From: Gammaproteobacteria bacterium
GTDB lineage: Bacteria > Pseudomonadota > Gammaproteobacteria > DSM-16500
Length of the DNA: 64,000 nucleotides
Assembly (NCBI GenBank): GCA_035478795.1
Contig: DATIJJ010000014.1
Span: 13,930-77,929 of the forward strand
Reading direction: 5' to 3'
Shown here: positions 31,621 through 41,103 of the stretch, piece by piece
Numbering within the stretch: the first letter of the stretch is position 1
Layout: each line of letters begins with the position of its first letter
Notes under the pieces: model-generated
The model's input: the letters and a program-made list of their open reading frames with translations, nothing else
Told to the model about the DNA's origin: nothing
Database searches by the model: none
Position numbers and translations under genes: made by a program

Positions 31621-32604
31621 ATGTTGAATACTAATCCGAATACGCCGTATGCAAACCTGAAGCCTGATAGCATTCTTGATGCCGTAGAAAGTGTTGGTTT
31701 TCGTTGTAACGGCAGCCTGTTTCCCCTGAATAGTTATGAAAATCGTGTTTATCAGATTGGAATAGAGGAAGCCGATCCTGTTATCGCGAAATTTTACCGC
31801 CCCCTGCGCTGGAGTAATGAGGCGATTCTGGAAGAACATCAATTTGCGGCGGAATTATCCGCGCACGAAATTCCTGTGGTTGCTCCACTGGTGATGAAAA
31901 ATAAAACGCTACACGATTACAAGGGTTTTCGTTTTGCCCTGTTCGTGCGCCGGGGTGGACGAGCGCTTGAGCTGGATAGCCTGGAGCAACTGGAGTGGAT
32001 GGGTCGATTTATTGGTCGTCTTCATGCAACAGGCGCCTGTCGATCCTTTCATCACCGACACACACTCACTGTGGATTACTTTGGATTCGCTCCCTGTCAT
32101 TTTTTGCTTGAAAACAATTTTATTCCTGACTATTTGAAACAGCCATTTGGCGAAGCCATTGAGACCGCTTTAAACCGGATTAAAATTATTTTTCAACAAA
32201 CCGGTGAAATAAAGCAAATCCGCCTGCATGGTGACTGTCATGCAGGTAATGTTTTATGGCGCGACAGCGGCCCACACATTGTAGATCTCGATGATTGCAT
32301 GATGGGTCCGGCTATTCAGGATCTCTGGATGTTGCTGTCAGGAAATGAAATGCAAATGCAAGCGCAACTGGAACGGATCTTGTGGGGTTATTGTGAATTT
32401 CATGATTTTAATTATCGTGAGCTTCACCTGATTGAAGCCTTGCGTACCTTGCGCATGTTGCATTATTCAGCCTGGCTTGCCAAACGCTGGGAAGATCCCG
32501 CATTTCCCTTAAATTTTCCCTGGTTTAATACAGCGCATTACTGGCAAGAACAACTGAACAATTTAAATGAACAAATTCAAAAGCTGCCATTAGCTCTCAG
32601 CTAA
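31621..32604 (+). CDS. srkA: Stress response Ser/Thr kinase SrkA (YihE/RdoA)
   Basis: Collinear with E. coli YihE as I remember it: PLNSYENRVYQ, KFYRP.RW, ILEEHQFA, RLHGDCHAGN.LWRD, VDLDD...GPA.QDLWML, DPAFP.NFPW. Confidence 0.9.
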   Translation: MLNTNPNTPYANLKPDSILDAVESVGFRCNGSLFPLNSYENRVYQIGIEEADPVIAKFYRPLRWSNEAILEEHQFAAELSAHEIPVVAPLVMKNKTLHDYKGFRFALFVRRGGRALELDSLEQLEWMGRFIGRLHATGACRSFHHRHTLTVDYFGFAPCHFLLENNFIPDYLKQPFGEAIETALNRIKIIFQQTGEIKQIRLHGDCHAGNVLWRDSGPHIVDLDDCMMGPAIQDLWMLLSGNEMQMQAQLERILWGYCEFHDFNYRELHLIEALRTLRMLHYSAWLAKRWEDPAFPLNFPWFNTAHYWQEQLNNLNEQIQKLPLALS

Positions 32605-33054
32605 TAATGAAAGCCGCTGGTAATGTTCCAGTGCCTGCTCGAGTGCCCGTTTGTCATGGGTCAGAGCCATTTTTTCCTGCTGCCATTGATTAAACAGCTG
32701 TTGCCAACGCCGGTTATTTTGACGGTATTTTTCCAACTCTGTTTTTAATTCGGCTATTTCCTGCTGATAGTTCAATTCAATTGGTACAAACTGTTCTGTT
32801 GATTGACTCAGTACGTTTTCCCAGAGTCCTTTAATCATTTCAATCAAAAATTCCGGCATCGGCCCCCTCAAAACGATTTTGGAAGTTTTGTTTTGTGCCT
32901 GTCTAAAACGACGCAAGTGCTGATTGATGGTGCCGGCGCTTCCTGTGCCGAGAAAATGGCGCACATTCTCAATAGTAATATTTTTATCCTGGCCTTTTAA
33001 TGCGCTGATTGCCGAGATAACATCTTCGTACGTAATTCCATGACGAGCCATCAT
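32590..33054 (-). CDS. KfrA_N-like DNA-binding protein with coiled-coil tail
   Basis: The N-terminus ITYEDVISAISALKGQDKNITIENVRHFLGTGSAGTINQHLRRFR resembles the KfrA N-terminal domain. The remainder is heptad-rich. It overlaps the srkA 3' end by 15 nt (convergent). Confidence 0.5.
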   Translation of the reverse strand: MMARHGITYEDVISAISALKGQDKNITIENVRHFLGTGSAGTINQHLRRFRQAQNKTSKIVLRGPMPEFLIEMIKGLWENVLSQSTEQFVPIELNYQQEIAELKTELEKYRQNNRRWQQLFNQWQQEKMALTHDKRALEQALEHYQRLSLLAES

Positions 33055-33512: not shown

Positions 33513-35174
33513 TTATAGCTCAGATTGTGGAAGATATTTTTCAACCCCAATAAATTTGCTTATGTTCAGGTCTTCGCCTTGTATCATCACTCGCTGGATT
33601 GAAGCATTAAAATGTAGCTGCTCTTCATCACTTAACTGTCTTGTCGACCAAATAATGACGGGCGTAAACAACCCTCTTTCAGTTTGCCGATAATAACGCA
33701 GAAATTCCGATCCATCCATTCCCGACGCGTAGGGATCCAATAAGACAACATCAGGACATTCCTGCTCCAATGCAAGCAATGCACCCACTTTATCTTTTCG
33801 AGAAATGACACGAAAACCAGCCTTGCTTAATACAGTATGAGCAAATAATAATGCTTCCTGATCGCTATCAATAATAAGAATCATTTTATTTTGACCGGCC
33901 AGTATTTCAATCCGCGAAAGAGCAGAAAGCAATTCTTTTTGCGTGGATGGCTTCACTAAAAAATCCCGAATTTTACAGCCTGTTTGTATCGGCGGCTCCA
34001 ATATGGCTTTAATCACCGTCGGATAAATATCATGCGCAGCAATTTTGGAACGCAGCGTACGAATCAGTTCAAAGCTGCCAGAATCTGGTTGAAATAAATC
34101 AAGAATGATCGCATTAAATGGATGCTGCATATTTTTTTTAATTGCTTCTTCCGTACTATTTGAGATGACAACATGATAACCCGCTTGAATCAAAGCATTG
34201 ACCATGAACTCTCTTGCTTGTGATGCTTGTTCAATAACAAGAATAGCAGGGACCTGTTCATTATTTTCGGGCGAACCTTTTCCTTTTGTTTTGTCATTTT
34301 CCCAGGTTTTATAGTAAGGAAAGCACGGCAACACAGCAAAAAAGGTGCTTCCTTTACCGATAAGACTCTCCACACCCACCTGCCCTCCCTGAGCTTCGAC
34401 AATTTTTTTGGTAAGAGCAAGCCCAAGACCTGTGCCTTGATAGGATTTTTTTGAACCGATATCCAGTTGTTGAAATTTAACAAACAGTTTTTTTAAATCT
34501 TCCTCGCGAATACCAATACCGGAATCCTGCACTTCCAAACGAAAATTCTTTTTTCCGAACCGGGCAATATTGACAGTAACACGCCCATCAGGTGGAGTGA
34601 ATTTAAGCGCATTGGATATATAATTATAAAATACCTGTTTAAGTTTTTTAGGATCAATGATGATCTCATTCAAAGCAGGGTCCATTTTAATTTCAAACTG
34701 AATATTTTTATCAGCGATAATTTTATAAAAAATTTTTCGAATGTTTTTGATTAATTTATACAAGTCTGTTTTTTCAGGATGAAATTCCATTTTATTCGAT
34801 TCAATTTTTGCAAGATCAAGCACATCGTTTATAAACACCAGCAGATGATTTGCGCTATCAACAATGTCATTCAAAAATTCATGATACCTGGGTGACCTGG
34901 TATCTAACAGACCATCTTTTAATATTTCTGAAAACCCAATAATGGCATTTAATGGAGTGCGCATTTCATGTGATATATTGGCAATAAACTCGTTTTTTAA
35001 TCGATCAGATTCTTTTGCTGAATAGATGATTTTTTCAAATGCCTGGTTTTTTGCCTGAAGATTTTTTACAGAAATTTCCAGTTGTTCTGCATAATGTAAT
35101 GCCGCCTGCCATTCCTTGTAGTAATTGGTCGCATTACTTTTGTTGCTTCCCATAAACACATCCCTGTCAGCCAT
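33513..35174 (-). CDS. Soluble hybrid histidine kinase (short coiled-coil N-terminus, HisKA, HATPase_c, two receiver-like domains)
   Basis: H-box ISHEMRTPLNAIIGFSE, N-box NYISNALKFT, G-boxes DSGIGI and GTGLGLALTK. Two REC-like segments follow (AIILDLFQPD.., VVLLDPYASGMDG). There is no hydrophobic segment and no recognisable sensor domain ahead of the H-box. Confidence 0.85.
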   Translation of the reverse strand: MADRDVFMGSNKSNATNYYKEWQAALHYAEQLEISVKNLQAKNQAFEKIIYSAKESDRLKNEFIANISHEMRTPLNAIIGFSEILKDGLLDTRSPRYHEFLNDIVDSANHLLVFINDVLDLAKIESNKMEFHPEKTDLYKLIKNIRKIFYKIIADKNIQFEIKMDPALNEIIIDPKKLKQVFYNYISNALKFTPPDGRVTVNIARFGKKNFRLEVQDSGIGIREEDLKKLFVKFQQLDIGSKKSYQGTGLGLALTKKIVEAQGGQVGVESLIGKGSTFFAVLPCFPYYKTWENDKTKGKGSPENNEQVPAILVIEQASQAREFMVNALIQAGYHVVISNSTEEAIKKNMQHPFNAIILDLFQPDSGSFELIRTLRSKIAAHDIYPTVIKAILEPPIQTGCKIRDFLVKPSTQKELLSALSRIEILAGQNKMILIIDSDQEALLFAHTVLSKAGFRVISRKDKVGALLALEQECPDVVLLDPYASGMDGSEFLRYYRQTERGLFTPVIIWSTRQLSDEEQLHFNASIQRVMIQGEDLNISKFIGVEKYLPQSEL

Positions 35175-35331
35175 TCTTCTGATTATATTATCAAAAAAAA
35201 GACATCAATGATGTATTTTATTGATTAAATTAACAAAATATCTGGCACTTTTTCTCTATAAAACCCCATTTTTTTAAAATATGAACCATACTTAAAACGT
35301 AGACATGTGATTTATCAGGGGTTAATAACTC

Positions 35332-38300
35332 ATGCAGAAGACCGGAAGGTTTCTTTTGGGTGTGCGTAGGAGCGTGACTCATTTCGCTCTGTCTTTTCTG
35401 TTGAGTTTGTTTTTATTTTTGGATGCCGCAGCCAATCCGGCAGGCGGTGTGGTCGCAGCCGGTGATGCGACGATTTACCATGGGCTTACTACGACCGTCA
35501 TTCATCAAACTACAAACAAGGCGATTATCAATTGGCAAAGTTTTAATATTGCCGCTCACGAAACAACGAATTTCAGACAGCCCTCATCCAGCGCTGTGAT
35601 GTTAAATCGCATTAATCCGGCGCAAGGCGTTTCGCAAATTTATGGGCATCTGAATGCAAATGGGAGAATCATCCTGGTCAATCAGGCTGGAATCTATTTT
35701 GGCCCGGGGTCCTTTGTGAATGTCGGTGGAATTATTGCATCGACTTCCAATATTTCAAATGAAAATTTTCTTGCCGGAAAATATATTTTTGATGAAGCCT
35801 CGCCTTATGCCGGCTCAATCATTAATGAAGGATCCATTATTGCAAAAGATAATGGTCTTGTTGCATTAATTGGAACGGGCGTCAGTAATAGTGGCTTGAT
35901 TCAGGCAAAACTGGGAAATGTTGTGCTTGCATCAGGAAATAAATTTACGATGGATTTTAATGGCGATCAACTGATTAATTTCACTGTTGATGAGGCGACA
36001 GGTGTTGCAGGTAAGGATAGAAATGGCAATCTTTTAAAAAATGGCATCAAAAATACAGGAAAAATTATTGCGAATGGCGGCACTATTCTTGTAACAGCAC
36101 GCGTCGCAAAAAATGTATTGGATAATGTCATCAACATGAAAGGTATTGCCATGGCCCGCTCGGTTGGAAAACATAATGGCGTTATTATTTTATCGGCGGG
36201 TGATGGAACGCTGAAAGTGTCGGGTCGTTTAGACGTTTCTTCGCGTAAAGATCAGGGCGGCACGATTAAAGTGTTGGGCGATCGCGTTCAAATTGAATCA
36301 CACGCCGTATTAAATGCCAGCGGTAAAACAGGTGGCGGTGAAATTTTAATCGGCGGTAATGCACACGGTGCAGGGCCAGAACAGAATGCGAGTTACACTT
36401 ATATTGGTCCAAACGTTACTATTTTTGCCGATGCGCTTGATAAGGGGAATGGTGGGAAAGTCGTCGTCTGGTCTGATCAGGGAACCGGATTTTATGGAAC
36501 TATTTTTGCTCGCGGCGGCGCTTCAGGCGGCAATGGCGGTTTTGTTGAAACGTCAGGCAAAGCGTATCTGGATGCCATGGGTATGGTTGACGCCAGTGCA
36601 AAGGCAGGGTTGCCCGGACAATGGCTGTTGGATCCGTTTAATGTCACCATCACAACGACCACAACAAATGGTGCATTTGACTCAGGTAATCCCAACACCT
36701 ACACACCCACCGCGAATAATGGCACTGCAAACGCAGCGACAATTAATGCCTCATTAAACGGTGGAACCAGTGTCACCATTACAACAGGATCAACAGGTGC
36801 CCAGGCAGGCAATATCACAGTCAGTTCTGCCATTCTGAAAAATGCGGGCCTAACCACACCAACGCTGACATTAAATGCAGCAGGAACCATTACGATTAAT
36901 AACACCCTTTCCGCAACCAGCGGCGGTCTCAATGTGACATTAACAGGCGATGCATTAACCCTGAACTCAGCCGTCACAACCAATGGCGGAAACTTTTTAA
37001 GTACCACACAAAATGCAACGACGCTCGCGAGTGCCATTTCGACGGGAGCCGGAACCGTTAGTATTAATGTCAATCAGGATGGTTTAGGCGCAAATGCATT
37101 TGCAATGAACGCAGGCAGTTCTATTACCACAACCAATGCAAGTGCCTCTGCTGTCTCAATTGCTGTGAATACAGCATCAGGCGGCACGGGCACGGCAGCT
37201 TTACGAAGCATTACAACAGGGAGTGGCGGGACAATTTCTGTTTCAACCAATTCAGCAAATGGTAATGACATTACAATGCCTGCAGGCCTGTTGGATGTCG
37301 GTACTGGAACTGTAACGCTATCTACATCACAACTGGCTGGACGAACAATTGGCACATCTGCTTTAAATATACAGATCAAAGCGGGAAATTTTAATGCCAC
37401 AACAGGAAATAGCGGGATCTTCGTCACCAATACAGGAACAACAGGACTCAATCTGGGAACAGTCAATTCAACAGCCGGATTAACACTGACATCCACAGGA
37501 AGCACAGGTATTACGGATAGCGGAACGCTGACCCTGCCAGGAACACTCACCGTTGCTGCGGGCGCGACGCAAGATATCACTCTGAATTCCGCTACCAATA
37601 ATTTTGGTACTGCTGCGATAACCAGTGGACGCAATGTCACGCTGGTTGATACAGATGGAATTATATTGGGCGCTTCAACTATTTCCGGCACATTGAATAT
37701 TTCAGCAGGTGGCACGGTTTCACAAAGCGCTGCATTAACGGTTTCCGGAACACCGACTTTTACCGTCACAACACCCTTATCTGATATTTTATTATCTACC
37801 CAGGCAAATGCGTTCAGCACAACACCGGTCTTTACGAATAACGGAAATATACGTGATTTGGGCTTAAGAAACACACTGGCGAGCGCTGCTGTTCCTGTGA
37901 TACCAACAGGCATGAGAAATTTAACGTTGACATTTGATAATGCAGGCATGACGCTGCCCGCCATGACGTTAACCGGTACATTAACGGCAACAGCAAATGG
38001 AGTTATCGCGCAGAGTGGTGCAGAAAACATTACAGGGGTTACGACACTTTCAGCAGGTAGTGGAAATGATATTACTTTAAATAATGCAGGCAACAACTTC
38101 AGTACAGCAACGATTACATCGGGTAATAATGTCTTGCTGCGTGATCTCAATGCATTGATATTAGGTGCATCAACGATCAGCGGTACATTAGGTGTCACGA
38201 CTAATGGTGCCATTACACAAAGTGGTGCTGGCGGATTATCTGTAACAGGTGCAACTACCCTCGATGCCGGATCAGCAAATAACATCACACTGAATACAGC

Positions 38301-41103
38301 AACCAATAATTTCAGTTCTGTCGGTATTACAAGTGGAAATAATGTGTCATTACGAGACGCCAATTCACTTGTTTTAAATACATCAACAGTCAGTGGAACG
38401 TTAGGCGTTACAACAGCAGGATTACTTTCCCAGTCAGGGGCTTTAACAGTCACAGGCGTAACTACTCTGGCAGCAGGTGCCACAAACGACATTACACTGA
38501 ATAATACCAATAATGATTTTAGTCGTGTGAATGTCACAACAGGCAATAACGTTACGTTAGTGGATACCAATGCGTTGATTCTGGGTACCTCGACTGTCTC
38601 AGGTACATACAATGTAACAGCAGGCGGCACGCTCTCTCAAAATGGTGTGTTAACCATTACGGGAACACCCACTTTCACCCTGACGACACCACTGACCGAT
38701 ATTTTATTATCAACATCGGCGAATGTATTTACGACAACGCCGGTTATTACCAATAATGGGAACGTACGCGATTTGTCACTACGCAATACAGCAGCCACTG
38801 CTGCCGTGCCAACTCTTCCATCCGGTCTTCGCAATTTGACACTGACTTTTAATAATAATGCAATGACATTGCCTGCAGTCACCCTGACAGGCGCATTTAC
38901 AGGACAGGCATTGGGGAATCTGGCCATCGGCGGCAATCTGACGACAGGTGCCAATTCAACTGTCACGGTGACAGCCGGTTCGTTTTCCGTATCAGATGGT
39001 GCAACGTTTAATACAAATAATACGAATCTTTCTGTCACCGCGACAGATCTCAATTTAAATACCACCGGTGCATTAAATGTGGGAAGTGGTACGTTAAATG
39101 TCACACAGAATACAGCCAGCGGAAGTATTGGTTTGGGAAATACCGCGGGCACGATGAGTATTAGCGGTTCAGAACTGCAACGCATGATAGCGGCTATTTT
39201 TAATCTCAATGCCCCTTCCGATGGACAAATTATTGTAGATGGCATCACGGCAGCTAACAGCGCAAACATTGCATCAATGCGTTTCTTTGGAAACAGTGGA
39301 CAAGTCAGCAGCATGATTTTCGAGAATAATCCTTCAAGCTTCAAATCACTGACTGCCAGCATCGATGATGGTATCACAATCGGTAGCGGAGCCGCTTTAA
39401 CAACGACTGCCGGGAGTATGACACTGAATGGTGATTCCGGTGGTATCGGTGGCGTAAATAATGCCGTTATTTTATTTGATAATGTCACTTCAGCAGGAAC
39501 GCTAACCTTAACTGCACCGACCAACGGTGTTATTTTAAATGCGCCTGTCACTCTGACTGCAAATGGTATAACAATCAATCCTGTCGTGAATGGGGCACAA
39601 AATCTCATCATTAACGCCGGCACAGGAACAATCAACTTTAATTCTGCAGTGGGTGCAACAACTCCCTTATCCAGCTTGAGCATCACAACAACGACAAATC
39701 CTGCGATTAATGTCAATGTTAATACGACCGGCAATATCAGCGTGATTTCCGCTGGAAATCTGACGTTAGCTGCCGGTGGCAATCTGACAAGCAGTGCAGG
39801 GAGCATTTTTCTGATGAGCGGTAGCGCTATGACACTGAATTCAACGATCACAGCCAATGCAGCAGGTGACTCGATTGTAGTGGTTGGACAAACGTTTAGA
39901 AATAACAAGGGAACCAGTGTTTTTAATCCGGGTATCGGCAATTATCTTGTCTGGTCAGGTGATCCGGCCAATGACAATCGTGGCGGTCTGACCTATAACT
40001 TTAAACAATATAACGCAACCTATGGATCAACACCGGTTGCAGGAACAGGGAATGGATTCCTCTATACAACAGCGCCTGTCATTACAGCTTCTCTGACCGG
40101 TTCGACCACAAAAGTATATGACGGTAATACGAATGCAACGCTGACAAACAGTAACTATATTTTTTCCGGCGAAATAGATGGTGATACAGTCACGCTTAAC
40201 GAACCGTTGAATGGAAATTACAGTTCACCGAATGTGGGTACAAACATTCCGGTAACCGTTTCAGGAATAACTATTCTGAGTGCAACGAATGGAAGTGCAA
40301 CCGTGTATGGCTATCAGGTTACGCCAACAGCAAGTGGAAATATCGGCATCATTACCCCGGCTATCATTCCACCGGTTCCGCCAGTTCCACCTGTGAATGA
40401 ATCGTCGATAGTCAATGCGATTACGCCATTCCAGAATGGAAATCAGCTTCAGAAAAATAACACAGAAAATACAAATATCAGTATCGTTAACAATAGCCTG
40501 ACAGGAAGTGGTATTCAAAATATCGCTATCGCAGAAAAAACATCCAGCGTTTTACAGCATGCATCTTCTGACACGCAAAGTGAATTCATGCAGTCGCTTT
40601 TTGCGGGTTATCCGAATCTCGAGGTCTCATCAAATAATAATTTAATATTGCTGCTCACCTTGTTAGTTCTGTCTTCTTTCCTGTTCACACAGACATTCAG
40701 AAAATACAGAGTTAATTTTATAAGTCATTTTCCATTAAATGAAAACATGTCAGCCATATCATTTAAGTTGCGTAGTTCGCTTGACAGTATTAATGGTTTT
40801 GCCGGATTACTGTATTTCAATGAAGCAGGAACATTCTCTCAAAAACAAATGGAATTTTTGAGTGATATTTTAACTGAGTCAAATATTATTTTATCCAATC
40901 TTTCAAAAATGGAATCCGGTTCAACTTCCATCGACGAGGCGTTATCCACCTTTCAATTTAATCTTCGTACATCCCTTAACAGCATCATTGGCTTTGCAAA
41001 TTTAATTGATCAGGGAACGGCTGGCGAAATATCCCCATTACAAAAAGAATTTATTCAAAATATTATTTCAGGATCCAATGAAGCATTAAAAACTGTACAA
41101 TAA
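35332..41103 (+). CDS. FHA-like two-partner-secretion exoprotein (TpsA), 1923 aa, with atypical C-terminal TM helix and two His-less HisKA-like modules
   Basis: Signal peptide (..LDAAA-NPAGG) and TPS domain (IINWQSFNI, FRQP, LNRI, GHLNANGRIILVNQAGIYFG). Then a long T/N/G/A-rich repeat region, an MBG-like segment (YDGNTNATL..), a PPVPPVPPV linker, the TM LILLLTLLVLSSFLFTQTF-RKYR, and finally SFKLRSSL..GF and QFNLRTSL..GF. Confidence 0.85.
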   Translation: MQKTGRFLLGVRRSVTHFALSFLLSLFLFLDAAANPAGGVVAAGDATIYHGLTTTVIHQTTNKAIINWQSFNIAAHETTNFRQPSSSAVMLNRINPAQGVSQIYGHLNANGRIILVNQAGIYFGPGSFVNVGGIIASTSNISNENFLAGKYIFDEASPYAGSIINEGSIIAKDNGLVALIGTGVSNSGLIQAKLGNVVLASGNKFTMDFNGDQLINFTVDEATGVAGKDRNGNLLKNGIKNTGKIIANGGTILVTARVAKNVLDNVINMKGIAMARSVGKHNGVIILSAGDGTLKVSGRLDVSSRKDQGGTIKVLGDRVQIESHAVLNASGKTGGGEILIGGNAHGAGPEQNASYTYIGPNVTIFADALDKGNGGKVVVWSDQGTGFYGTIFARGGASGGNGGFVETSGKAYLDAMGMVDASAKAGLPGQWLLDPFNVTITTTTTNGAFDSGNPNTYTPTANNGTANAATINASLNGGTSVTITTGSTGAQAGNITVSSAILKNAGLTTPTLTLNAAGTITINNTLSATSGGLNVTLTGDALTLNSAVTTNGGNFLSTTQNATTLASAISTGAGTVSINVNQDGLGANAFAMNAGSSITTTNASASAVSIAVNTASGGTGTAALRSITTGSGGTISVSTNSANGNDITMPAGLLDVGTGTVTLSTSQLAGRTIGTSALNIQIKAGNFNATTGNSGIFVTNTGTTGLNLGTVNSTAGLTLTSTGSTGITDSGTLTLPGTLTVAAGATQDITLNSATNNFGTAAITSGRNVTLVDTDGIILGASTISGTLNISAGGTVSQSAALTVSGTPTFTVTTPLSDILLSTQANAFSTTPVFTNNGNIRDLGLRNTLASAAVPVIPTGMRNLTLTFDNAGMTLPAMTLTGTLTATANGVIAQSGAENITGVTTLSAGSGNDITLNNAGNNFSTATITSGNNVLLRDLNALILGASTISGTLGVTTNGAITQSGAGGLSVTGATTLDAGSANNITLNTATNNFSSVGITSGNNVSLRDANSLVLNTSTVSGTLGVTTAGLLSQSGALTVTGVTTLAAGATNDITLNNTNNDFSRVNVTTGNNVTLVDTNALILGTSTVSGTYNVTAGGTLSQNGVLTITGTPTFTLTTPLTDILLSTSANVFTTTPVITNNGNVRDLSLRNTAATAAVPTLPSGLRNLTLTFNNNAMTLPAVTLTGAFTGQALGNLAIGGNLTTGANSTVTVTAGSFSVSDGATFNTNNTNLSVTATDLNLNTTGALNVGSGTLNVTQNTASGSIGLGNTAGTMSISGSELQRMIAAIFNLNAPSDGQIIVDGITAANSANIASMRFFGNSGQVSSMIFENNPSSFKSLTASIDDGITIGSGAALTTTAGSMTLNGDSGGIGGVNNAVILFDNVTSAGTLTLTAPTNGVILNAPVTLTANGITINPVVNGAQNLIINAGTGTINFNSAVGATTPLSSLSITTTTNPAINVNVNTTGNISVISAGNLTLAAGGNLTSSAGSIFLMSGSAMTLNSTITANAAGDSIVVVGQTFRNNKGTSVFNPGIGNYLVWSGDPANDNRGGLTYNFKQYNATYGSTPVAGTGNGFLYTTAPVITASLTGSTTKVYDGNTNATLTNSNYIFSGEIDGDTVTLNEPLNGNYSSPNVGTNIPVTVSGITILSATNGSATVYGYQVTPTASGNIGIITPAIIPPVPPVPPVNESSIVNAITPFQNGNQLQKNNTENTNISIVNNSLTGSGIQNIAIAEKTSSVLQHASSDTQSEFMQSLFAGYPNLEVSSNNNLILLLTLLVLSSFLFTQTFRKYRVNFISHFPLNENMSAISFKLRSSLDSINGFAGLLYFNEAGTFSQKQMEFLSDILTESNIILSNLSKMESGSTSIDEALSTFQFNLRTSLNSIIGFANLIDQGTAGEISPLQKEFIQNIISGSNEALKTVQ
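37549..38892 (+). repeat. Nested intragenic repeats inside the TpsA gene
   Basis: A ~143-aa segment (37549-37977, TVAAGATQDITLNS...PAMTLTG) recurs at 38464-38892 (TLAAGATNDITLNN...PAVTLTG). About 58-aa units (..AG..NDITLN.A.NNFS...ITSGNNV.LRD.N.L.LG.STISGTLGVTT.G...QSG) lie in between. Confidence 0.8.

Follow-up and report, generated by a model that had tools for sequence, protein, structure and literature searches.

What is a domain derived from histidine kinases doing at the end of a secreted filament? The question is raised by a 64,000-bp stretch of DNA from a gammaproteobacterial assembly (GCA_035478795.1, contig DATIJJ010000014.1), hereafter the window. In it, the gene for a TpsA-type exoprotein runs on, past its repeats, into a hydrophobic segment and two helix-loop-helix units that a first-pass annotation had likened to the DHp domain of a kinase encoded nearby. 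TpsA proteins are usually viewed as exported adhesins or toxin carriers with no cytoplasmic link, and kinase DHp domains as obligate dimers. The family to which this tail belongs suggests a single-chain, histidine-less DHp mimic that is repeatedly accompanied, in bacteria that are not Alphaproteobacteria, by one particular kinase and a DivK-like regulator. With moderate confidence, we read the tail as a cytoplasmic, membrane-anchored docking bundle for that receiver, for the soluble kinase, or for both, which would link a phosphorelay to an envelope-spanning filament.

The TpsA reading frame continues into a histidine-less HisKA-like tail

The TpsA gene is one unbroken open reading frame (ORF) of 1923 aa, with its tail in frame and its features where the first-pass annotation had placed them (Table 2). 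The same gene call was made on contig CAYRVD010000003.1 of a short-read metagenome-assembled genome (MAG) at NCBI (GCA_964427775.1). Its N-terminal part has the signal peptide and TPS domain of a TpsA protein, the latter recognized both by Pfam (Haemagg_act) and by the NCBIfam model for the filamentous-hemagglutinin N-terminal domain (TIGR01901; E 1e-18, 67 bits against a cut-off of 29.1). The long repeat body that follows is predicted to be beta-helical from its DUF5649 matches and aligns with the bodies of other TpsA proteins. The segment earlier called MBG-like is indeed a domain, although Pfam identifies it as YDG. A linker then opens with PPVPPVPPV (aa 1680-1688, nt 40369-40395) and passes into an Asn/Ser-rich, low-complexity stretch.

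The hydrophobic stretch had been described as 19 residues followed by RKYR, and this description holds. The segment LILLLTLLVLSSFLFTQTF (nt 40642-40698), with RKYR directly after it, has a Kyte-Doolittle value of 2.12 and, apart from the signal peptide, is the sole segment of the protein above 1.6. Two hairpins follow, with the H-boxes SFKLRSSLDSINGF and QFNLRTSLNSIIGF. They are 41% identical to each other, and both align with the DHp domain of the divergently encoded kinase, as the annotation had proposed (BLASTP E 8e-7 and 35% identity for hairpin 1, E 1e-7 and 33% identity for hairpin 2); a SxxLRTxLNxIIGF core is common to the tail and the kinase. In neither H-box is there a phospho-accepting His. 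Phe occupies that position in both, at F1811 (codon at nt 40762) and F1876 (nt 40957), and the kinase-type acidic residue at +1 is missing, with Lys and Asn in its place. The sole His in the tail, H1799, lies in the juxtamembrane segment and is not conserved. Pfam finds neither an HATPase_c nor an Hpt match in the protein, whose chain ends 47 residues past F1876, and no NCBIfam model covers the tail.

When the tail was searched alone, Pfam HisKA (PF00512) scored 27.5 bits against a cut-off of 26.9 (E 3e-6) on hairpin 2 only, and the score fell to 18.7 bits, under the threshold, when the whole protein was searched. The HisKA similarity of the window protein is thus real but weak. It is joined by the helix-loop-helix form of both hairpins in an AlphaFold2 model described below.

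A separate small gene starting at the internal M1806 (NENM) was considered and rejected: no stop codon lies upstream, nothing like a Shine-Dalgarno sequence directly precedes it, and the fusion is conserved.

A family of tandem hairpins with phenylalanine in place of histidine

We scanned 1.84 billion representative proteins exhaustively with the tail as a HMMER (phmmer) query and obtained 378 matches at E<=1e-3, 28 of them at E<=1e-10. The best matches align over the full tail, with which these proteins of 1300-3300 aa end. Twelve tail proteins begin with a signal peptide and a TPS domain (phmmer with the TPS region of the window protein, E 1e-82 to 1e-143), and these tail-bearing TpsA proteins were drawn from NCBI MAGs and from JGI, ENA and Logan assemblies. 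At least 12 TpsA clusters, independent of one another and taken from different assemblies, carry the same in-frame fusion, and in the window no stop codon or frameshift precedes the tail. P0002 is the nearest relative by phmmer, with 58% identity over the tail; in the family alignment the aligned tails are 24-56% identical to that of the window protein.

The module is not confined to exoproteins. A transmembrane (TM) helix, a basic patch and two hairpins also make up small proteins (P0030, P0052, P0117, P0006), of which P0030 (151 aa) starts directly with TM-RRR and continues with two hairpins, and several hairpin pairs are present in P0001, P0004 and P0005. As a module the tail is autonomous, being found in small membrane proteins as well. 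All 28 aligned family tails match Pfam HisKA (best E 6e-16), and a family profile searched against the PDB matched only kinase DHp domains, including those of HK853, DivL (4q20) and RetS; on both grounds the tail is a genuine, diverged HisKA relative.

H-boxes were surveyed in the top 150 matches with a motif fixed at positions +3, +6, +9, +11 and +12 relative to the acceptor and free at 0, +1, +4 and +5. Besides the window protein, 40 proteins had only His-less H-boxes, and these 41 proteins together hold 87 repeats. From rank 34 down, the remaining matches are mostly ordinary kinases with SHELRTPLN, and the 124 true-kinase repeats used for comparison come from this same match list (Table 1). 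The replacement of His by Phe is therefore a property of the family. Judged from its sequence, the tail has lost every residue specific to kinase chemistry and has retained the docking residues of helix 1. Conservation of the motif over 87 repeats reveals purifying selection.

Table 1. Residues at H-box positions in His-less and true-kinase repeats
Position	His-less repeats (87)	True-kinase repeats (124)
0 (acceptor)	F 82, Y 5, H 0	H 124
+1	mostly K/N; acidic ~12/87	E/D 121/124
+3	R 85/87	R 124/124
+4	T 61, S 17	T 120/124
+5	P 0/87	P 124/124

Other searches reached less of the family. A word-indexed protein search with aa 1700-1923 returned nothing and, when given the family alignment, four small proteins only. 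A scan of a genome collection with aa 1401-1923 returned 80 loci that match the YDG and beta-helix part only (query residues to ~347) and in none of which the tail was found. Neither a TM segment nor HisKA-like hairpins were seen in the two TpsA homologues that were read to their ends, those of L007 (end obscured by masking) and L009 (low-complexity tail). Exact look-ups of the neighboring kinase and of P0011 gave no record.

A DivK-like receiver accompanies every retrievable tail gene

The kinase had been placed about 160 bp from the TpsA gene, and 157 bp do separate the two start codons. Beyond it lies the gene of a single-domain receiver with intact E10/D11, D54, T84 and K106, whose best PDB match is Caulobacter DivK (1m5t, E 5e-28), with the first PleD receiver in second place; JGI annotates many of its orthologues as 'cell cycle response regulator DivK'. 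We compared the nine tail-bearing loci that could be retrieved. These are the window itself, L082 (tail protein P0029), L083 (P0152), L084 (P0002), L085 (P0021), L086-88 (the stand-alone, 212-aa P0153), counted as L086, L089 (P0026), L090 (the stand-alone P0117) and L091 (P0031).

An orthologous single-domain receiver of 123-134 aa is encoded no more than a few genes from the tail gene in all nine. These receivers are 44-77% identical to one another, compared with 21-37% to other receivers of the same loci. A kinase orthologous to that of the window (44-67% identity over the DHp-CA core) is present in seven of nine loci, the window and six others. Of the remaining two, L082 encodes a soluble, non-orthologous kinase of the HisKA_2 type, and L085 has the receiver with no adjacent kinase. 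Gene order and orientation vary: the partners may lie upstream and divergent, downstream in the same orientation, or convergent. This variation argues for selection on linkage rather than inherited synteny. In a reverse test, a receiver homologue chosen for its long contig was found in an AAA_14-HK-HK-REC-REC-REC cluster divergent from a TpsA gene, which is 50% identical to the window TpsA over its first 519 aa and is then cut by the contig end. The link to the neighboring kinase and regulator that the annotation had suggested is thus backed by the neighborhood.

Other genes recur in the related loci. In four of these, though not in the window, an AAA_14 ATPase gene (432-462 aa) separates the TpsA gene from the kinase and receiver genes; it may encode a further component of the module. 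A second receiver of 182-184 aa, followed by an Hpt protein, is encoded a few kb from the TpsA-tail gene in L083 and L085; the two receivers are 59% identical, and the pair hints at a multi-step phosphorelay around the tail module. In L089 and L092, two kinase genes are followed by three single-domain receiver genes in a row, and the third of these encodes the DivK-like receiver.

Predicted topology and fold of the tail

The residues flanking the hydrophobic segment are asymmetric in charge: there is no Lys or Arg among the 15 preceding residues and there are three among the 15 that follow. In the family alignment a hydrophobic stretch occupies the same position, visibly followed by basic residues in most rows. 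A single TM helix with a basic C-terminal side, in the window protein and its relatives, predicts an N-out/C-in orientation. Since the stand-alone homologues begin with the TM helix, the module appears to be a membrane-anchored unit in its own right, without a secretion domain. The conserved partners of the tail gene, kinase and receiver, are cytoplasmic proteins, and the tail itself would lie in the cytoplasm. If extended, the 91-residue linker would measure about 30 nm, enough by generic dimensions for the periplasm plus the pore of a TpsB transporter.

A helical-hairpin structure of the tail was another point of the annotation to be checked. AlphaFold2, given aa 1763-1923 and a 28-sequence alignment, predicted a long helix over the TM stretch and four further helices forming two hairpins (pLDDT 90.2, pTM 0.72). 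The two hairpins probably pack into one intramolecular four-helix bundle, a single-chain mimic of a dimeric DHp domain. Proteins with more than two repeats fit this prediction, since their hairpins are paired ~65 aa apart with longer gaps between pairs. The TpsA filament is a monomer; dimerization would be unnecessary if the bundle formed within one chain. When the model was compared with the PDB by Foldseek, only compact single-chain four-helix bundles were matched (talin R4, pectin-methylesterase inhibitor and PA2107), with a TM-score of 0.71-0.73 and a root-mean-square deviation of 3.0-3.1 A over ~115 columns for PA2107. This result informs the fold class and not the function.

A proposed mechanism

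We propose that one stop-transfer helix anchors the C-terminus of the TpsA filament in the inner membrane and that, behind this helix, the two tandem, His-less HisKA hairpins would fold together in the cytoplasm as a single-chain four-helix bundle. With Phe at the acceptor position, the +1 acidic residue lost and no ATPase domain, the bundle could not be phosphorylated. Its regulator-docking face would be retained, with Arg at +3 and Thr or Ser at +4, and would dock the DivK-like receiver encoded next door, the soluble kinase, or both. Its action could resemble that of DivL toward DivK~P, that is, binding without phosphotransfer. The state of the filament would in this way be coupled to the phosphorelay. 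Signaling might run outside-in, as contact or tension sensing, or inside-out, with the phosphorylated regulator controlling the adhesin.

The bolder version of the proposal is that one polypeptide spans the whole Gram-negative envelope, from a filament exported through TpsB, across a periplasmic linker of ~90 residues and an inner-membrane helix, to a cytoplasmic pseudo-DHp domain, and that this polypeptide is a two-component receptor. This we put forward tentatively, as a possibility somewhat short of an even chance.

Several observations weigh against the proposal. No TpsB (POTRA + ShlB) was found among the neighboring and larger ORFs scanned with Pfam in the 64-kb window, and no TpsB gene adjoins most of the related TpsA-tail loci. 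That the filament crosses the outer membrane is an assumption based on the TPS domain and on L091, where a 578-aa TpsB (POTRA_2 + ShlB) is encoded in a cluster with the TpsA, receiver and kinase genes; the presence of that gene supports real two-partner secretion for the tail family. The membrane topology is a prediction from hydropathy and the positive-inside rule, the four-helix packing is likewise predicted, and any tail-receiver contact is putative; all Foldseek matches had E >= 0.086 and were without statistical significance. DivK-like receivers of this group greatly outnumber the tail family (1717 matches at E<=1e-25), so the receiver is not exclusive to the tail module. Finally, all family members come from uncultured gammaproteobacterial MAGs, where named, or from metagenomes.

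Alternative explanations

The docking bundle might be aimed at the kinase, in the manner of RetS acting on GacS. It would then bind the DHp domain of the neighboring soluble kinase, not the receiver, as a decoy or scaffold; the kinase would be inhibited, or recruited to the membrane at the filament base, and the tail protein would supply its sensor and anchor. Hydropathy finds no TM segment in the kinases of the window, L082, L083, L084 or L086, so far in keeping with a need for such an anchor, and an orthologous kinase is encoded in seven loci. The tail profile matches RetS and GacS-type DHp structures (6dk7, 7n0e/7z8n), and the H-box core is shared with the kinase itself. If the predicted intramolecular bundle is closed, however, no hairpin would be free for heterodimerization. 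Moreover, L085 lacks an adjacent kinase, the kinase of L082 is of a different type, and the receiver, found in nine of nine loci, is the more constant neighbor. We regard this explanation as unlikely, but as the strongest of the alternatives.

A dedicated membrane-bound phosphatase is a little less probable again. Here the His-less bundle would dephosphorylate the DivK-like regulator by means of the Thr or Ser at +4, much as HisKA DHp domains can act as phosphatases independently of their kinase function. One or the other residue is kept in 78 of 87 repeats, and the acidic +1 residue typical of kinases is lost. In four HisKA kinases, phosphatase activity depends on Thr or Asn at H+4 and kinase activity does not; the acidic H+1 residue of HisKA domains matters for kinase activity only (PMC3510030). 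DivL has the same motif, yet shows no phosphatase activity (PMC4211667). Retention of Thr at +4 could serve docking alone. The dependence of phosphatase activity on the His and on the CA domain varies between kinases, which we also count against this reading.

TpsA and CdiA proteins typically carry polymorphic C-terminal toxins, and the tail could in principle be cargo of the contact-dependent inhibition (CDI) type, its TM helix and four helices forming a membrane-inserting toxin, for example an ionophore, or another effector for neighboring cells. Ionophore toxins are predicted membrane-spanning five-helix bundles, and every ionophoric cdiA is followed by a small hydrophobic ORF (PMC11630599). 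The tail model also has five helices, but the four C-terminal ones are polar HisKA homologues without a Kyte-Doolittle peak. No VENN, ELYN, NEALV or similar pretoxin motif was found in the window TpsA, and there is no downstream immunity ORF, as only 85 nt separate the TpsA stop codon from the gene of an NAD-dependent epimerase. The tail is, furthermore, conserved and not polymorphic, is carried by stand-alone small membrane proteins without a secretion domain, and is linked to cytoplasmic signaling genes. A toxin or ionophore is accordingly very improbable, and we rejected it on the polar HisKA helices, the missing VENN-type motif, the 85-nt gap and the conserved tail.

A mis-assembly, or a decaying gene in which a deletion fused the TpsA gene to the remnant of a kinase gene, has a negligible probability: the source contig is from a short-read MAG, the tail is lower in GC than the gene and the word-indexed search with it was empty, but the same in-frame architecture recurs in at least 12 representative TpsA clusters (NCBI MAGs, JGI, ENA, Logan), P0002 keeps its identity across the tail, the motif is conserved throughout the 87 repeats and the low GC fits the composition of the helices, and we exclude an artefact on this recurrence across independent assemblies and on the conservation pattern.

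Other features of the locus

The coordinates of the features are given in Table 2. GC content is 32% in the tail (40630-41103), 44% in the whole TpsA gene and 41% in the window. The low value fits the Lys/Asn/Ile/Phe-rich helical composition of the tail; it may also be compatible with a separate origin of the tail module. The repeat body contains a large internal duplication, in which TPLSDILLSTQANAFSTTPVFTNNGNIRDLGLRNT corresponds to TPLTDILLSTSANVFTTTPVITNNGNVRDLSLRNT, and repeats of this kind may be the reason why related TpsA genes (L002, L092, L093) are cut at contig ends. Two antisense ORFs inside the repeats very probably arise from the biased composition of the latter and are unlikely to be genes.

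Immediately downstream of the receiver gene and in the same orientation is the gene of a KfrA_N protein (plasmid-type DNA-binding N-terminal domain); in the closest relative, L084, a DUF2845 protein stands in its place. A PAS-GGDEF-EAL protein is encoded about 3 kb downstream of the TpsA gene, and a GGDEF gene is also found near the stand-alone tail gene in L086. Elsewhere in the window, a 1171-aa ORF with a TTG start resembles two tandem-fused ABC-F proteins, and could be a real fusion or the result of a lost stop codon; L083 has two separate ABC-F genes (632 and 557 aa).

Table 2. Coordinates of features in the window and, where a locus is named, in related loci
Feature	Position (nt)	Strand	Evidence or remark
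KfrA_N protein	32590..33054	-	E 2e-21
Single-domain DivK-like response regulator, 123 aa	33117..33488	-	Pfam Response_reg E 4e-28; proposed partner
Soluble hybrid histidine kinase: HisKA (SHEMRTP), HATPase_c, receiver domains	33513..35174	-	Pfam; no hydrophobic segment; proposed partner
AT-rich divergent intergenic region, 157 bp, between kinase and TpsA genes	35175..35331	.	sequence
Whole gene: 1923-aa TpsA-type exoprotein with C-terminal anchor (predicted) and pseudo-DHp tail	35332..41103	+	single ORF
Signal peptide, ~aa 1-34, ...LDAAA then NPAGG	35332..35433	+	hydrophobic peak aa 15-33; cleavage site putative
TPS domain, aa 36-300	35437..36231	+	Pfam PF05860, E 6e-27, 95.5 bits vs cut-off 33.5
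Thr/Asn/Gly-rich beta-helix repeat region (DUF5649)	36232..40080	+	Pfam PF18886, six stretches, E 3e-60; boundaries approximate
Antisense ORF, 518 aa	37074..38630	-	inside TpsA repeats
Internal duplication, aa ~800-1200	~37700..39000	+	inside TpsA repeats
Antisense ORF, 434 aa	38637..39941	-	inside TpsA repeats
YDG domain, aa 1584-1653	40081..40290	+	Pfam PF18657, E 4e-11
Pro/Asn/Ser linker, 91 aa, aa 1680-1770	40369..40641	+	sequence and composition; periplasm-spanning role proposed
Predicted TM helix (aa 1771-1789) + RKYR; proposed stop-transfer anchor, N-out/C-in	40642..40710	+	hydropathy, AlphaFold2, family alignment
Pseudo-DHp hairpin 1, aa 1802-1861, F1811 for His	40735..40914	+	AlphaFold2 helices 1802-1828, 1837-1861
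Pseudo-DHp hairpin 2, aa 1867-1922, F1876 for His	40930..41097	+	AlphaFold2 helices 1867-1893, 1902-1922
TpsA stop codon	41101..41103	+
NAD-dependent epimerase gene	from 41189		next gene after TpsA
PAS-GGDEF-EAL protein, 856 aa	44380..46950	-
ABC-F-like ORF, 1171 aa	55230..58745	+	four ABC_tran stretches, two ABC_tran_Xtn, C-terminal ABC_tran_CTD
TpsB, L091	12086..13822		POTRA_2 + ShlB
AAA_14 gene, L083	8590..9888
AAA_14 gene, L085	8414..9739
AAA_14 gene, L089	8429..9817
AAA_14 gene, L092	5816..7153
Second receiver and Hpt protein, L083	4146..5058
Second receiver and Hpt protein, L085	6904..7810
Three consecutive receivers after two kinase genes, L089	4950..6224
Three consecutive receivers after two kinase genes, L092	8909..10172

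Novelty and significance

TpsA exoproteins and HisKA-derived pseudo-kinases that bind DivK-type regulators are both known kinds of protein. In the literature searched, no paper describes a TpsA protein joined to a TM segment and a HisKA-like tail. Nor did we find there a tandem, single-chain Phe-box DHp domain, stand-alone versions of it anchored in the membrane, TpsA proteins that end in it, or its constant gammaproteobacterial association with one kinase and one receiver of the DivK type. For annotation, the signature SFxLR[TS]xLNxIxGF, without Pro at +5 and occurring in pairs ~65 aa apart after a TM helix, can be applied to proteins now labeled 'histidine kinase' or 'filamentous hemagglutinin'.

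Should the docking bundle operate as proposed, a DivK-like phosphorelay would directly receive the signal when the filament is pulled, touches a surface or is lost, or the phosphorelay would control the filament. A type V-secreted adhesin would itself be the receptor of a two-component pathway, and the tails would found a new family of His-less tandem-DHp pseudo-kinases. With the predicted topology, the protein would physically connect the cell surface with the phosphorelay, like a wire, and would be a candidate sensor of contact or tension; a trans-envelope chain would amount to a new kind of surface-to-cytoplasm signaling device. The locus offers a testable system for how bacteria sense surface attachment, and an illustration of pseudo-enzymes rewiring two-component signaling.

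Comparison with known systems

DivL, a HisKA pseudo-kinase, has Tyr where a kinase has its His. It adds no phosphate to DivK and removes none, and it binds DivK~P through the face on which kinases normally dock regulators; R553 (Y+3) is needed for this binding, and the Y550F variant still binds (PMC4211667). The tail resembles DivL in three respects: a non-phosphorylatable aromatic residue replaces the DHp His (Tyr550 in DivL, Phe or Tyr in the tail); Arg is retained at +3 (R553 in DivL, 85 of 87 tail repeats); and the partner is a DivK-type single-domain receiver, bound in the case of DivL and, for the tail, proposed from gene linkage to a receiver with DivK as its best PDB match. In other respects the two differ. 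DivL has PAS and CA domains, is a homodimer and belongs to Caulobacter and other Alphaproteobacteria, whereas the tail has no PAS or CA domain by Pfam, carries two tandem hairpins in one chain without the Pro at +5, and is gammaproteobacterial. The tail also has a predicted TM helix attached to it and, in many cases, a secreted TpsA filament.

CdiA and FhaB share with the window protein an N-terminal TPS domain and a long beta-helical filament. In these proteins the TpsA chain is threaded through the outer membrane while a C-terminal part is kept inside the envelope. Unlike the tail, their C-terminal regions are periplasmic toxins or prodomains, and, unlike CDI loci, the window locus has no pretoxin motif or immunity gene. 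We know of no CdiA or FhaB protein with an inner-membrane anchor, a cytoplasmic domain or HisKA homology, and none appeared in the literature searched.

RetS and GacS offer a precedent for a DHp domain used as a protein-interaction module, and DHp domains of their type are among the PDB matches of the tail profile; RetS is nonetheless a full hybrid kinase with His and CA domain, whereas the tail is a His-less tandem DHp only. Hpt proteins and Spo0B/ChpT likewise dock receivers on four-helix bundles, in Hpt on a single chain like that predicted for the tail. All of these carry a phosphorylatable His, which the tail lacks, and the tail is homologous to HisKA. A looser analogy is provided by LapD, LapG and LapA, in which the fate of a giant adhesin on the cell surface depends on a degenerate signaling domain located at the inner membrane. 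That system is built from unrelated families, a c-di-GMP receptor, a protease and a type I secretion substrate, and its sensor and adhesin are separate proteins, whereas the window TpsA would combine the two in one chain.

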